From: Promethearchaeota archaeon | GTDB taxonomy: Archaea > Asgardarchaeota > Lokiarchaeia > Sigyniarchaeales > SOKP01 | Direction: 5' to 3' | NCBI GenBank assembly: GCA_016930515.1 | Contig: JAFGGO010000164.1 | Coordinates: 1-21,757 of the forward strand | Length of the DNA: 21,757 nt | Part shown: in pieces, positions 2,064 through 21,355 of the stretch | How positions within the stretch are numbered: the stretch's first letter is position 1 | Layout of the letters: each line of letters begins with the position of its first letter | Program-made: the position numbers and the translations under genes | Notes under the pieces: model-generated | Database searches by the model: none | The model's input: only the letters and a program-made list of their open reading frames with translations | Told to the model about the DNA's origin: nothing

Positions 2064-3479
2064 TTGTGTTCAGTGGATTTAAATGAAATATGTACAAACG
2101 ATAGAGAACAATTAGAAATCCTATTAAGAAAAGATGTGAAAGTTCAGGAATGCTCGATAGATAATAAAGGCAATATTGTAGAACTTTTCATAATAAATGC
2201 TAATTTAAAAGAATTTTATTTTCCTGAACTTGAGAAATTATTTCTTTTTAGCGATAATACAATTGATTTATCGTTCATTGAAAAACATATTAATTTAACT
2301 CATTTAACACTTAGAAATAATTTAAGAGATTTTCCCGAAATCAGTTCAAGAAAACTAACATATCTCAATTTAGATAATAATTTACTTGAAGAAATAAATT
2401 CGACATATTTCTTTCCTAAATTGAAGACTTTGATTATCTCAAGAAATAATATTAAATCTCTTGATTCATTGTTTAACTTGTATTTATGTAAAAATCTTAG
2501 GCATTTGATTCTTTCTCATAATTATATTCAAGACCTATTAGATCTTAGACCTTTTAAGGGTTTTACAAAATTAGAGACATTAGACTTATCGTATAATAAA
2601 ATAAAGACAATTAATATTTCTTCTCAAATTCAAAATTTGAAGAGTATTGATTTGAGCAATAACTTGATACAAGAGATACATCGTATCAATAATTTGCCAA
2701 AATTAAGGAAATTATATTTAAACAACAACAATATTAAAGAACTAAAAAATTTTGGAATATTAAAAAGCTTGGAGTTTATCGATACTTTTAATAATCCTAT
2801 TAAAAACATTTCAGATCTCGAAGAACTTCGAAACATTAAAGATATTGGACCGATATTTTTAGGAAATTTTAACAAGAAAGATGTTGAAATTTTATTTAGA
2901 TATATTCATGATATCGGTTTAATAACAGATTTAGGTGATGATTGGGGCGATTACACCCTTGATTATGATCAATCAATAAGAATAATTGGACCTTTCCCGA
3001 AGAAAATCTTTAAAATCAACGATAAAATTACTCTTAAGTTAATAGATGGAAAGACAAAACTTTTTATCGATAATAAGGAGTTTATTCATTGCAAATTCAT
3101 TTTAATTACAGTTCCCAAGGAGGACATGATGAGATTCGACTCCATTGATTCAATCGCGGAAAATTTTGGTTCTGATCAATTACAGAAAGGTTATATTACA
3201 CCAGAAGAAGAATTTTGGGGGCACTGTTCTAATTTACAACTTTGGGCTGAGAACGATTACGATACTCGCTACCTTCACATAAATCTTGCGTTTCCCTTGC
3301 TTGAAAGATTATCAGAGTTAAGAGATAAAACTGCAATTGTCAAATTTAAAGAGGAAATCGTAAGTAGATATAATTCTGGAGACATCAAGGTCCGCAAGTA
3401 TATAGAAAATGGAAAATACTTGGAATATTTGTCAGTAGAAGAAAAATCACGGTTGGATTCATATGGCAATCGATCTTGA
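2064..3479 (+). CDS. Leucine-rich repeat protein with a C-terminal non-LRR domain
   Basis: Repeated LxxLxLxxNxI units (LKTLIISRNNI, LRHLILSHNYI, LETLDLSYNKI, LKSIDLSNNLI, LRKLYLNNNNI). C-terminal domain FKINDKITLKL...ITPEEEFWGHCSNLQLWAENDYDTRYLH. The TTG start is uncertain. Confidence 0.85.
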   Translation: MCSVDLNEICTNDREQLEILLRKDVKVQECSIDNKGNIVELFIINANLKEFYFPELEKLFLFSDNTIDLSFIEKHINLTHLTLRNNLRDFPEISSRKLTYLNLDNNLLEEINSTYFFPKLKTLIISRNNIKSLDSLFNLYLCKNLRHLILSHNYIQDLLDLRPFKGFTKLETLDLSYNKIKTINISSQIQNLKSIDLSNNLIQEIHRINNLPKLRKLYLNNNNIKELKNFGILKSLEFIDTFNNPIKNISDLEELRNIKDIGPIFLGNFNKKDVEILFRYIHDIGLITDLGDDWGDYTLDYDQSIRIIGPFPKKIFKINDKITLKLIDGKTKLFIDNKEFIHCKFILITVPKEDMMRFDSIDSIAENFGSDQLQKGYITPEEEFWGHCSNLQLWAENDYDTRYLHINLAFPLLERLSELRDKTAIVKFKEEIVSRYNSGDIKVRKYIENGKYLEYLSVEEKSRLDSYGNRS

Positions 3480-17143: not shown

Positions 17144-17920
17144 TCACTTAAGATTTCCTCGCCAAATCCCTTCTTTAAAACAAGCTTTAATGCATTTACC
17201 GCACACATTATGTTTCAGATCGAGGGAAAGAATGAAGTTTCTGCATTTCTCTCGATGGTCACCAAGATTATCTTTTTTTTCTAAAATAGGACACACCCTT
17301 AAGCAAGCGTCGCATTCCCCACATTGAGTTTCAATCTTATGCCCTTGTTTTAGCGGCAACTTGCATAAAATGGATGTAAAGCGAACAGCAGGTCCAAAAG
17401 CGGTCGTGACGATTAAGTCGTTTTTGCCTCTCCAACCAATCCCAGCGTGTTCGGCAACGACCCTATGTGAAATAGTGTGTGGAAAGTAATCGCTAACGTG
17501 ACTTATTTTCTCCGTTGGCACGCCTGTAGTCGGAGGTACGCATATTCCATTAAATTCATGTGCAATTTTTTCCCCAATTTCGGAGAGTAAATTATTCAAG
17601 TGAGCGTATTCATCTCCGTATTGATCCCAATATTCTTTATAGACGACATTATTTTTTGAAACATTAATACCTTCGATAATTCCATCGGGATAAAACAAGC
17701 CAAGAGATATAATATTTCCCAAATTCTTATACTCTTCCAATTCCTCTTTGAGAAGCTTTTCAAGTCTTTTTTTCTGGACAGGCATTAGATCTTTGAATAC
17801 TAAAGAAAATTTGGCTACTCCAAATACGCCTTCATAATCGTTCTCGTGTAGGAAATCCGAAAAGAATTGGTAAATTCTGTCTTTATTATTATCTTTTACA
17901 GAATTTGGATTACTATTCAT
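17144..17920 (-). CDS. QueG / reductive-dehalogenase-like 4Fe-4S protein
   Basis: SHRVVAEHAGIGWRGKNDL...FGPAVRFTSIL; CGECDACLRVCP; C-x13-CGKCIKAC. Confidence 0.8.
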   Translation of the reverse strand: MNSNPNSVKDNNKDRIYQFFSDFLHENDYEGVFGVAKFSLVFKDLMPVQKKRLEKLLKEELEEYKNLGNIISLGLFYPDGIIEGINVSKNNVVYKEYWDQYGDEYAHLNNLLSEIGEKIAHEFNGICVPPTTGVPTEKISHVSDYFPHTISHRVVAEHAGIGWRGKNDLIVTTAFGPAVRFTSILCKLPLKQGHKIETQCGECDACLRVCPILEKKDNLGDHREKCRNFILSLDLKHNVCGKCIKACFKEGIWRGNLK

Positions 17921-18027
17921 TAAAGTTCTATCCTGATTATCAATTATGTAGTTAAATTTCTTTGAAATCTAAAATTTTACCTTTTAGGTCGTTAAACAAA
18001 CTATAAATATCATCTTCCCTTAGTTTA

Positions 18028-18035
18028 TTTATAAT
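18028..18035 (+). promoter_or_regulatory. Candidate TATA box for the trp leader transcript
   Basis: TTTATAAT starting 35 nt before the leader ATG. An alternative TATAAAT lies at 18002-18008. The region is AT-rich and shared with the divergent gene. Confidence 0.4.
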
Positions 18036-18062
18036 TTAACAAAACAAAGTTGAGAACATAAC

Positions 18063-18134
18063 ATGCCTAATTTATTAGTCAAGACTGGTCTTCGCACTAC
18101 AACTTGGTTTTGGGTTTGGCGTTGGCACGCATAG
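18063..18134 (+). CDS. trpL: Trp-rich leader peptide (TrpL-like), 23 aa MPNLLVKTGLRTTTWFWVWRWHA
   Basis: ATG at 18063, TGG codons at 18105, 18111, 18117 and 18123, TAG at 18132-18134. It lies 143 nt upstream of trpE on the same strand. The symbol is given by analogy, not homology. Confidence 0.85.
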   Translation: MPNLLVKTGLRTTTWFWVWRWHA

Positions 18135-18191
18135 AACGTGCGCAATGGCAACTTTCAGATCTTAATCATCTTTAAAATCTAGATTTTTTTT
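18120..18191 (+). terminator. Putative attenuator: hairpin over the leader stop, weak AU stem and U8 tract
   Basis: CGTTG-GCACG (18120-18129) pairs with CGTGC-g-CAATG (18137-18147), loop CATAGAA. AGAT-c-TTAA/TTAA-a-ATCT stem at 18157-18180. T8 at 18184-18191. Confidence 0.65.
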
Positions 18192-18277
18192 CGTTATTAC
18201 GATTATCAGAATTTAAAAGCGAGAGTTCTTCAAACATATATAAGAGATAAAAAAATAAATAAAAAGGATAAGATAAA

Positions 18278-19795
18278 ATGATTGACGAAAACATCGAATT
18301 TGACATTCATATTGAAAAACTTGGAACGGTCAAAAATTCGGATATTTTTGGATTTTACAAGTATTTAGTAGCAAAATACGACTTAAAAAATCACGTGTTA
18401 TTGGAATCCGCTTCGGAAAGCACCAAAGAAGCCTTGTATAGTTTTATTGCCATGAAACCGGATTTCATGCTTCAAATTACCAAGGATCAGCACAAGATTT
18501 ACGATATCACCACCGAAAGGGGTGAAAACATCAAACATTACATTGAATCAAAGGATCCCGCAGAAGAAAGACCACACAATCCACTCCCATTCAAGGATAA
18601 TGTCGAATATAACATGGTTGCTCTAGATACCTTAAGTCACCTTACACCCTATTCAAACCTGCCTTTCACGGAATTGTTCCCAAGAAACATTTTTTATGGT
18701 GGAATGTTGGGATACATCGGTTATGATGTAGTAGCACCTTACGTGGGATATTCTGCCTCAAGCGATTTTCAAGACATCCTTATGGGCCTTTACACCAAAG
18801 TTTTAGTGTATTCTCACAAATCTAATTCAATATTCATGATCGACAACAGCATCGACGATTATTCTAAGGATAAGGACATAAGGTATCAATTAAGCTTGTT
18901 TAACAGGGAGCACGCTTCCAATGAAATTGCTGATATTCCGACGGACATTGAGGATATAGACGAATCGACTTTTCGATCAAATACGAGCAAGAGTGCTCAC
19001 GAAAAAATGGTTGAAAAAACCAAGGAGCACATTTATGCTGGTGATATCATCCAAGCGGTTATTTCAAGAAGATTATACGCAGAAAGCAAGGTTGAACCCT
19101 TGGAGATTTACGAAATATTGCGCCAACTCAATCCAAGCCCTTACATGTATAATATTAACTTTAAGGAGATTCACGTGATTGGCAGCAGTCCCGAAGCGCT
19201 CATCTCAAAAAACAAGGACATATTATCGACCGTGCCAATAGCGGGAACTATAAGAAGAGGAAAAACTGCGGAAGAGGACTTAAAACTGGAAAAACAACTC
19301 ATCAACGATCCAAAAGAACAAGCTGAACACCTCCAGTTAACGGATCTTGCTAGAAATGACTTGGCAAAGGTTTCTTATCCCGGAACGGTTGAAACGCACG
19401 ATTTCATGACAATACAGAAATATCAGAAAGTTCAGCACATCGTTAGCAAGGTCCAGAGTAGGACACCACTAGACGGATATCAAGTTTTAAAAAGTGTCTT
19501 CCCTGCTGGGACGCTTAGTGGGGCTCCGAAATTGAAAGCAATGCAAATAATTAACGAGTTAGAAACGGAATCGAGAGGACCATATGGAGGAGGGATCGGA
19601 TATTTCGCCTTCAACGGTGATATGGCGTTCGCAATAGCAATAAGAACTTTATTTGGAAGGGATAACAAGTATTTTGCTCAAGCTGGTGGGGGTATTGTAG
19701 CGGATAGCGTTCCAGAGGATGAATATGCTGAAACTTATAATAAGCTTTACAGCGTACTTAAATCAATAAAAATTGCGGAGGATAAAGGAAAATGA
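18278..19795 (+). CDS. trpE: Anthranilate synthase component I
   Basis: Trp feedback motifs LLES and NPSPYM; GSSPE, PIAGT, AEH-x3-DLARND, FPAGTLSGAPK, RGPYGG, IAIRT, QAGGGIVADS. Confidence 0.93.
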   Translation: MIDENIEFDIHIEKLGTVKNSDIFGFYKYLVAKYDLKNHVLLESASESTKEALYSFIAMKPDFMLQITKDQHKIYDITTERGENIKHYIESKDPAEERPHNPLPFKDNVEYNMVALDTLSHLTPYSNLPFTELFPRNIFYGGMLGYIGYDVVAPYVGYSASSDFQDILMGLYTKVLVYSHKSNSIFMIDNSIDDYSKDKDIRYQLSLFNREHASNEIADIPTDIEDIDESTFRSNTSKSAHEKMVEKTKEHIYAGDIIQAVISRRLYAESKVEPLEIYEILRQLNPSPYMYNINFKEIHVIGSSPEALISKNKDILSTVPIAGTIRRGKTAEEDLKLEKQLINDPKEQAEHLQLTDLARNDLAKVSYPGTVETHDFMTIQKYQKVQHIVSKVQSRTPLDGYQVLKSVFPAGTLSGAPKLKAMQIINELETESRGPYGGGIGYFAFNGDMAFAIAIRTLFGRDNKYFAQAGGGIVADSVPEDEYAETYNKLYSVLKSIKIAEDKGK

Positions 19796-20388
19796 ATATT
19801 TTATTTATAAACAATTATGATAGTTTTGTGTATAATTTAGTAAATTATATTTGTCAACTTACACCAGATTCAAATATAATCGTTGAGGATAACCAGATAT
19901 CTCTTGAAAAAGTAAAAGAATATGTTCCAAATAAAATAATCATTTCACCAGGTCCTGGTCATCCCAAATACGATTCAGGAACAGTAATACCAATTATCAA
20001 GGAATATTACGATAAAGTCCCTATATTGGGCGTTTGTTTGGGACATCAAGCAATGGTGGAAGCGTTTGGAGAAAATCCAGATGAAGAATATGTCGGATTA
20101 GCAAAAGTAGGACCAATGCACGGTAAAGAATCAAAAGTATTTCACGACCAAGAAACCATTTTTAAAAACATCCCTAATCCACTTAGAGTGATCCGATACC
20201 ATTCATTAGCAGCTAAGGGGGATATTCTGCCTAAAGTTCTCAAAATCACTGCGACAGCCGACGATGGTACAATAATGGCAATACGCCATAAGAATTATCC
20301 CGTAGAAGGAGTGCAATTTCATCCCGAATCCATAAAAATGAAGCCTGACGGAATGAAAATTTTAAAGAATTTCATGGAATTAGAATAA
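19792..20388 (+). CDS. trpG: Anthranilate synthase component II (glutamine amidotransferase)
   Basis: NYDSFVYNL, ISPGPGHP, GVCLGHQ, MHGK, RYHSL, GVQFHPES. ATGA overlap with trpE. Confidence 0.93.
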   Translation: MNILFINNYDSFVYNLVNYICQLTPDSNIIVEDNQISLEKVKEYVPNKIIISPGPGHPKYDSGTVIPIIKEYYDKVPILGVCLGHQAMVEAFGENPDEEYVGLAKVGPMHGKESKVFHDQETIFKNIPNPLRVIRYHSLAAKGDILPKVLKITATADDGTIMAIRHKNYPVEGVQFHPESIKMKPDGMKILKNFMELE

Positions 20389-20461: not shown

Positions 20462-21355
20462 ATGGATGAGTATATAATATATAAAAATGAAAAATATTCC
20501 CTTTGGAATAAAAGGTTAGATATAATTGAAAAAGAAATTAAATCCATTTTAGAATTGACAGACCTATTTAAATTTAAGGATTTAAAAGGATTAGCTTTAA
20601 AAACAAATAAGATAACTAGTTTAGAAGGTGTAGAAAAATTCTTAGAACTAAGTAGCTTAAACTTAAGAAAAAATAATATTGAAAAAATAGAAAATCTTGA
20701 TAAACTTGATAATTTAGTGGAATTAATCTTAGAATTTAATAAAATAGGAATTATAGAAGGATTTGCGAATTTAAAAAATTTAACCTACTTGAATCTTTCA
20801 CATAATAACATTAAGAGAATCGAAAATTTAGAGAATTTAGAAGCCTTAAAAACATTAAATCTTAGCTTTAATGAAATATCAAAAATTGAAGGTCTATCAA
20901 CTTTAAAAAATCTGGAAAAATTGGATTTGACAAGAAATGTAAATATTTCTAAAATTGAAAATCTCGATAATTTAGAAAATTTGAAAACACTTATCATTGA
21001 TGGAACCTCAATAAAAAAAATTGAAGGACTGTCAAAATTAAAAAATCTTGAATTTTTAAGCATCGTTTGTGATAAAAATAAAGAACGAATTACTGAAATA
21101 GAAGGTTTAGAACACTTAATAAATTTGAAGGATATTTCTATAAACACTTTTTATCTTCATCATTCGGAATTTAGTTATTCTAATATAGTTATTATTCTTC
21201 GTTTTGCTTGCATGATAAAAACTAATGAATATCATTCAATTGAAGATTGGAAAGAAATTTTCAAAAGATTTCCTAAAGCATTCACAAATTTTGAGATCAA
21301 TTTACCAGATCCGAGAATTAAATGGTATGTAAAACTATGTAGCTCAAAATTATAA
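20462..21355 (+). CDS. SDS22-like leucine-rich repeat protein
   Basis: 22-aa units LxxLxLxxNxIxxIExL (e.g. LTYLNLSHNNIKRIENLENLEA, LKTLNLSFNEISKIEGLSTLKN). The frame stays open for 34 codons after the TAA. Confidence 0.88.
   Translation: MDEYIIYKNEKYSLWNKRLDIIEKEIKSILELTDLFKFKDLKGLALKTNKITSLEGVEKFLELSSLNLRKNNIEKIENLDKLDNLVELILEFNKIGIIEGFANLKNLTYLNLSHNNIKRIENLENLEALKTLNLSFNEISKIEGLSTLKNLEKLDLTRNVNISKIENLDNLENLKTLIIDGTSIKKIEGLSKLKNLEFLSIVCDKNKERITEIEGLEHLINLKDISINTFYLHHSEFSYSNIVIILRFACMIKTNEYHSIEDWKEIFKRFPKAFTNFEINLPDPRIKWYVKLCSSKL

Follow-up and report, generated by a model that had tools for sequence, protein, structure and literature searches.

Genomic context of the trpEG locus

The window, that is, the whole 21,757-nt stretch of DNA that was analyzed, carries on its forward strand trpE (18278-19795), encoding anthranilate synthase component I with the Pfam domains Anth_synt_I_N and Chorismate_bind, and trpG (19792-20388), which overlaps trpE and encodes the glutamine amidotransferase subunit (Pfam GATase). 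Neither TrpE nor TrpG contains any Trp residue. Upstream of trpE on the same strand, a leader ORF of 23 codons (18063-18134) begins with ATG and is separated from the trpE start by 143 nt. Its N-terminal part is variable and its Trp-rich tail, which reads W-F-W-V-W-R-W-H-A-stop, is conserved. The four TGG control codons are located at alternating positions (18105, 18111, 18117, and 18123, spanning 18105-18125), confirming the coordinates and the Trp content that a first-pass annotation of the sequence had given for this ORF.

A TATA-like box (TATAAATA, 18002-18009, + strand) lies 61 nt 5' of the leader ATG, and a comparable box is found 49-69 nt 5' of the leader ATG at 17 of 20 loci of family A, the leader subtype of the window. 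From its position, transcription is predicted to start at approximately 18030-18036, which would give the leader a 5' UTR of about 30 nt. A short conserved motif of the CAA-GTTG type just 5' of the leader start (18045-18052, + strand) is present in most family-A upstream sequences, and we raise the question of whether it may be an initiation signal. The intergenic flanks contain 26 G in 269 nt versus 18 in the 72 nt of the leader ORF, so both the TATA-like box and the G-poor flanks noted in the first-pass annotation are borne out. Its assumption that the contig is archaeal also holds, as judged from the trpE orthologs (68-88% identity between the window trpE and those of the same family), from relatives named Promethearchaeota that carry the leader motif, and from the gene for aCPSF1/FttA encoded by this genome. 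The class of the genome is that of P. syntrophicum and Ca. L. ossiferum.

Among the surrounding genes, a divergent gene on the minus strand (17144-17920) encodes a 258-aa protein with ferredoxin-type Cys motifs and without a Pfam match, and is also the neighbor of the locus in another genome (G003). Three leucine-rich-repeat genes are present in the window (2064-3479, 20462-21355, and 21477 to the end), two of them in tandem directly 3' of trpG.

Conservation of the reading frame and of the Trp codons

Family A comprises 22 copies gathered by DNA motif, of which 20 entered a reading-frame test; a decayed copy and a copy cut by a contig end were left out. The tested stretch, the 13 codons before the first Trp, has a mean DNA identity of 44%. 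In these 20 leaders there are no in-frame stops, versus 33 and 41 in the other two frames, and an in-frame ATG is found in 20 leaders, versus 2 and 4 for the other frames. Trp occupies tail positions -9, -7, -5, and -3 in 20, 19, 17, and 20 of the 20 leaders, respectively. The N-terminus of the peptide is not conserved across the family, and this freedom to vary indicates that the signal resides in the codons rather than in the peptide. Family B, the subtype of the trpB2 and trpD leaders, shows the same frame pattern, a result that is biased because the set was filtered for ATG. A U precedes TGG in 253 of 356 cases, whereas codon usage would predict 105, and the rare codons CGT and CAG are preferred in the leaders, indicating that the codons are also constrained at the RNA level.

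These observations bear on whether the peptide itself could be the sensor. In a TnaC-like mechanism, the nascent peptide would be arrested by free tryptophan, with the WxWxWxW tail acting in the exit tunnel, and the partly conserved tail length and inter-Trp residues (F, R, H, A) of the family-A leaders, as well as the resemblance of 23 codons and a long untranslated spacer to tnaC, speak for it. However, the inter-Trp residues are conserved within families and differ between them, as explained by pairing and codon choice, and both the number of Trp codons per leader (2 to 4) and their spacing (alternating or tandem) vary. Stalling by free Trp would moreover induce biosynthesis at high Trp unless the output were inverted, and we regard such an arrest as very improbable.

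Within this genome, clustered Trp codons of this kind are rare. Three or more Trp within the 7 codons just before a stop occur in 2 of 1,555 intergenic regions (at least 150 nt long and ahead of genes), both with four Trp, and the two regions head trpE and trpD. The same two loci account for the only 2 of 4,272 short intergenic ATG ORFs with three or more Trp in 7 codons. The second Trp leader belongs to family B and has 18 codons with four Trp (contig C24:10732-10788, minus strand), 143 nt before trpDCF-B-x-A. In the latter operon, a 149-aa EF-hand-like gene is inserted between trpB and trpA.

Short ORFs rich in Leu, Ile, Val/Leu, or Ala/Val precede six further genes of this genome (C134:20609-20716, C47:28123-28191, C122:19911-19988, C61:7871-7996, C126:41855-41956, and C175:36075-36188). 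The genes behind them, named by motif only, are a leuA-like gene, a cimA-like gene, the genes for an acyl-CoA dehydrogenase, an acyl-CoA mutase, and the gamma subunit of a 2-oxoacid oxidoreductase, and an ilvE-like gene. At C106:14995-15105, overlapping poly-Leu and poly-Ile ORFs on opposite strands arise from a simple trinucleotide repeat and are probably not leaders.

It could also be argued that the ORF is a by-product of a TGG-rich RNA or DNA motif, or encodes a small protein acting in trans, and that regulation is left to a protein such as TrpY or Tar, which govern trp genes in other archaea (PMC6737238). Nucleotide conservation is strong around the Trp codons, as such a motif would have it, but the open frame and the in-frame ATG are retained where identity is just 44%, and every TGG lies in one frame. 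No TRP box (TGTACA) is found near 17920-18277, the promoter region, and the three matches in the whole window compare with 2.6 expected by chance. The parallel Leu-, Ile-, and Val-rich ORFs before the leuA-like, cimA-like, and branched-chain acyl-CoA genes also speak against this explanation, which we consider remote.

Occurrence of the leader in Asgard archaea

A search ahead of the trp genes of relatives found the Trp-rich leader at operon heads; its absence from relatives, which the first-pass annotation had named as a refutation, is thus not observed. Most relatives have trpE inside trpDCFBAEG, where it lacks a leader (none of 23 internal trpE copies has a leader with three or more Trp). 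In Lokiarchaeia, the Trp-rich ORF precedes whichever trp gene leads, be it trpE, trpA, trpD, or a stand-alone trpB2. An operon-head leader with 2-4 Trp is present in all 19 genomes with a readable region, in two of them without an evident in-frame ATG, and a genome with a split operon carries one leader before trpD and another before trpE. One exact leader pattern that was searched gave matches only in Promethearchaeota/Asgard records. Other pattern hits, where followed up, again pointed to trpD or trpB2, and hits in coding DNA or in Gly/Ser repeat DNA were discarded.

The product of stand-alone trpB2 makes Trp from indole and serine. A leader with three or more Trp is found at 57 of 87 trpB2 loci of Lokiarchaeia (antisense control 0 of 87); in other Asgard families, 16 of 59 loci have one, versus 2 on the antisense strand. 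All of these counts are inflated, because related genomes share history and are not independent trials. In families f11, f13, f19, f20, f21, and f26, a trpB2 without a leader means only that trpB2 adjoins coding DNA. The carriers include P. syntrophicum, Ca. L. ossiferum, Ca. Odinarchaeum yellowstonii, and Ca. Borrarchaeum, and a Trp-rich ORF precedes trpB2 in genomes labeled Odin-, Sif-, Hod-, and Heimdallarchaeota. Leaders from Asgard groups other than Lokiarchaeia often have longer open frames (40-80 codons), and tandem Trp codons occur in some of them. The alternating WxWxWxW spacing pointed out in the first-pass annotation is typical only of Lokiarchaeia; Hodarchaeota-labeled leaders have tandem WW. 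Shared motifs are the only indication that the element descended vertically.

Several copies depart from the common arrangement. In a decayed leader (L084, G068:C147:3834-3858), two Trp codons have become stops; this copy precedes a truncated trpA, and an intact leader-trpA copy lies 2.6 kb away. Four family-A leaders with three Trp each (L085, L087, L088, and L076) precede a 385-aa GNAT and methyltransferase fusion gene, which has no known link to Trp and lies just 3' of trpEG in two genomes; this leader is either orphaned or marks a new member of the regulon. Leader loss before trpB2 occurs mostly in genomes with a full trp operon.

We also noted the following features of individual leaders. 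The trpD (L047) and trpB2 (L125) leaders of Ca. L. ossiferum are nearly identical over approximately 80-90 nt around the Trp codons, a likeness that may point to recent duplication or conversion. A remnant of a short ORF (up to about 99 aa, with a common GPEK motif) lies between leader and trpD at L031, L034, L036, L038, L086, and L283. The long leaders of Odin-, Sif-, Hod-, and Heimdall-type genomes (L193-L197, L205, L219, and L231-L236) share an N-terminal G-(L/F)-A-L motif, and a similar DNA motif is located directly 5' of the family B leader ATG in Lokiarchaeia.

RNA structure of the leader and the linker

The end of the leader ORF can fold into a hairpin, H1 (18120-18147, + strand), whose 5' arm (18120-18129) contains the last Trp and His codons and whose 3' arm (18137-18147) follows a loop that holds the leader stop codon; the stem has one bulge. 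In 21 family-A relatives, 96% of the cells are paired, with no compensatory change. The homologous hairpin of the trpB2 and trpD leaders in family B (46 sequences) does show compensatory changes. For H1 together with an irregular hairpin downstream, 29 cells are changed on both sides in this family, a number reached in none of 500 shuffles, and the slid controls were all lower. In some family B sequences, the register of H1 is shifted. At the foot of H1, a CA(A/T)NGG motif (18142-18148, + strand) is found in 74 of 102 leaders and is common to the trpB2/trpD family and the Odinarchaeia leaders. The downstream hairpin of family B sits past the U-rich linker; it is kept in three genomes without the ORF, at the upstream regions of trpB2 L105, L108, and L110, where the Trp ORF has been lost.

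Beyond H1, the untranslated linker (18149-18277, + strand) is U-rich and then A-rich. It contains a U8 run (18184-18191, + strand), a candidate termination or cleavage signal, and AAGGA (18264-18268, + strand), a candidate SD sequence. The fraction of U at 20-40 nt past the stop is 0.51-0.58 versus 0.39-0.43 in controls, and a run of six or more U is present in 94% of family-A linkers versus 31-39% of control intergenic regions. A scan for bacterial terminators, defined as a GC-rich hairpin followed by a U run, found none; the only structures of this kind in the region are AU-rich stems and free U tracts. The overall folding of the leader region is not unusual (z -0.77), and in an Rfam scan the leader did not come near any gathering score of the Trp leader families.

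Given the position of H1, we considered a classical trpL attenuator, in which mutually exclusive 1:2, 2:3, and 3:4 hairpins would end in an intrinsic terminator. H1 has the 1:2 geometry of trpL. Segment 2 of family B is similar to the pairing strand of the irregular hairpin downstream, for which it might compete, and 84% of the cells in the candidate alternative pairs of this family are compatible. However, the 2:3-type antiterminator pairs covary no more than shuffled alignments (3 covarying cells versus 3.5; 390 of 500 shuffles reached at least this number), 36 of 44 sequences do not form one of the central pairs, and covariation is seen for neither of the two pairings considered in family B, that between segment 2 and the 5' strand of this hairpin and that between the CAUUGG motif and CCAAU. 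Together with the missing GC-rich hairpin and U run and with ribosome-footprint masking that gave no refolding, this makes a trpL-type switch an unlikely explanation, and clearly so. The tRNA-Trp-sensing attenuator of the first-pass annotation is upheld as a conserved, frame-selected Trp leader, whereas its classical architecture is not supported, as no bacterial-type terminator, covarying antiterminator, or modeled ribosome-dependent refolding was found.

The main rival to the favored model described below is that the output is translational or otherwise post-transcriptional. The stalled ribosome would then make the start of trpE more or less accessible, or keep the completed mRNA from being cleaved, and no premature termination would take place. 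The absence of a terminator hairpin suits this explanation, and the model fold of the window pairs the linker with the trpE SD and start (P unpaired 0.16). There is a precedent in the mycobacterial polycysteine sORFs (bioRxiv 10.1101/834739), and such control would work without transcription-translation coupling, which is possibly loose in Asgard cells (PMC8776820). On the other hand, the helix that would cover the SD is AU-rich, does not outperform shuffled sequences, and is not conserved, and no conserved anti-SD helix is found in the leader alignments. In folding models of 79 leaders under ribosome-footprint masking, the accessibility of SD and linker was unchanged, that of the SD being 0.41-0.50 in every masking state. 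Finally, the gap of 140-450 nt between the leader stop and the downstream start is too long for direct coupling. We consider this option possible but rather doubtful.

RNA contigs of Ca. L. ossiferum (four runs from one study) cover the region from the leader into trpD without a break, consistent with one transcript, although assembled contigs of this type cannot show starts, ends, or levels of transcripts. A start base shared by these contigs inside the ORF was rejected as a start site: it lies 30 nt from the first difference between the trpD leader and its trpB2 leader copy, as expected of k=31 assembly at a repeat. A tenfold depth step in one of the runs was likewise set aside as evidence.

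Proposed mechanism of Trp sensing

The leader ORF most likely senses charged tRNA-Trp through ribosome stalling, and from the sequence comparisons we place the probability of this reading at about 0.9. It is the simplest reading because conservation is limited to the reading frame and the Trp codons, and because the genes under control provide Trp but encode next to none of it in their own products. How stalling would be turned into an output is less certain. We favor a model in which the stalled ribosome holds H1 open and shields the RNA from termination or cleavage by aCPSF1/FttA, a step for which we see about even chances. Archaeal termination at U tracts is carried out by the nuclease aCPSF1/FttA (PMC13675443), and the Lokiarchaeum aCPSF1 ortholog, placed in M. 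maripaludis, terminates according to the number of U4 tracts (PMC8716108). The model is favored on account of this U-tract termination, the data on the Loki enzyme, and the presence of the gene in this genome.

In the proposed model, the leader ORF, once translated, would control trpEG in cis. When Trp is ample, the ribosome would run through the leader and depart, H1 would fold, and the bare U-rich linker could be used by aCPSF1/FttA or for intrinsic U-tract termination, so that the transcript would be stopped or cut before trpE. When Trp is scarce, the ribosome would pause on the Trp codons, keeping H1 open and hindering the loading of the factor, and the delay would let the polymerase reach trpE. 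The ribosome itself would then be the antiterminator, and for this reason an alternative hairpin would be unneeded. All steps beyond translation of the ORF are inferred.

Points in favor of the model are the position of the leader ahead of the leading trp gene, the variable N-terminus of the peptide, the RNA-level constraint on the codons, the two-sided changes in H1 and the downstream structure of family B, the U enrichment 3' of the stop, the presence of aCPSF1, and the decayed leader in front of a truncated trpA. Several observations count against it. A ribosome stalled on the Trp codons would cover the RNA to only a few nucleotides beyond the stop and would not reach the U8 run. The leaders of the GNAT-methyltransferase gene fit it poorly, as do the position of the family B downstream hairpin and its survival without the ORF. 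In bacteria, a stalled and uncoupled ribosome normally promotes factor-dependent termination; for the model to act in the proposed direction, H1 or its foot would therefore have to belong to the signal, as we assume. In addition, DNA and ribosomes were found spatially apart in cells of Loki- and Heimdallarchaeota in one imaging study (PMC8776820), and archaeal transcription-translation coupling is itself still a proposed model (PMC13681488).

In its broadest form, the proposal is that Asgard archaea, including the Hodarchaeales-type relatives of eukaryotes, possess ancestral, phylum-wide uORFs sensing Trp, Leu, Ile, and Val, in which a stalled ribosome gates the CPSF73-family nuclease aCPSF1 with no bacterial terminator or antiterminator hairpins. 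We offer this generalization tentatively, with the odds somewhat against it. If true, the gating of aCPSF1 would be an attenuation mechanism of the archaea's own and a genetic readout of transcription-translation coupling. Should the output be premature termination, the leaders would be natural reporters of coupling in Asgard cells, which bears on the origin of the nucleus given the reports of separated DNA and ribosomes. Should it be post-transcriptional, control by uORFs would have a precedent among prokaryotes, and in the very lineage that is nearest to eukaryotes. The element is testable now, because both cultured Lokiarchaeia carry the leader and Loki aCPSF1 works in Methanococcus.

Comparison with known systems

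Sensing of charged tRNA by leader peptides is textbook knowledge for bacteria. Our literature search, in which coverage of subscription papers was thin, found no archaeal or Asgard leader-peptide attenuator. Trp leaders of the E. coli and Salmonella trpL kind are also known from Corynebacterium and Streptomyces (PMC1262725). Like trpL, the Asgard leader is a short ORF at the head of a trp operon with Trp codons clustered near its end, and its control codons are buried in a hairpin that also contains the stop codon. Unlike trpL, it has alternating Trp codons, an archaeal TATA promoter, and a 143-nt AU-rich linker, and it lacks a GC-rich poly-U terminator, a covarying antiterminator, and an Rfam match. 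The element would work like bacterial leader-peptide attenuation, but two tests that define trpL gave a negative result, and we therefore do not count it as a member of the trpL family.

For archaeal trp genes, a 2019 paper names only protein regulators, TrpY of Methanothermobacter and Tar (TK0271) of Thermococcus (PMC6737238). Control by TrpY or Tar concerns the same pathway in the same domain of life, but these are DNA-binding proteins that act at initiation with no leader ORF, and the window promoter has no TRP box. The Met-Trp of the Methanothermobacter system, taken for a minigene in the first-pass annotation, reportedly consists of the first residues of the TrpY protein.

The mycobacterial polycysteine sORFs, or 'ribulon' (bioRxiv 10.1101/834739), resemble the Asgard leaders in being rich in the cognate codon, in having no terminators, and in serving several unlinked operons. 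The mycobacterial ORFs are leaderless, and their effect comes from the release of a sequestered SD (bioRxiv 10.1101/834739), whereas the Asgard ORF seemingly has a 30-nt UTR and a conserved SD-sequestering helix was not found.

In E. coli, tnaC is subject to Rho-dependent attenuation, a system also mentioned in PMC1262725. The TnaC peptide senses free Trp and controls catabolism. The Asgard leader is similar to tnaC in length and is likewise followed by a long untranslated pyrimidine-rich spacer. The spacer is enriched in U tracts and the genome encodes a termination factor, the sites of action being candidates only; as in tnaC, a ribosome left at the leader end could block this factor. In contrast to tnaC, the Asgard genes are biosynthetic, the N-terminus of the peptide is free to vary, and the factor would be aCPSF1/FttA instead of Rho. 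The favored model would thus combine a geometry like that of tnaC and Rho with a trigger like that of trpL.
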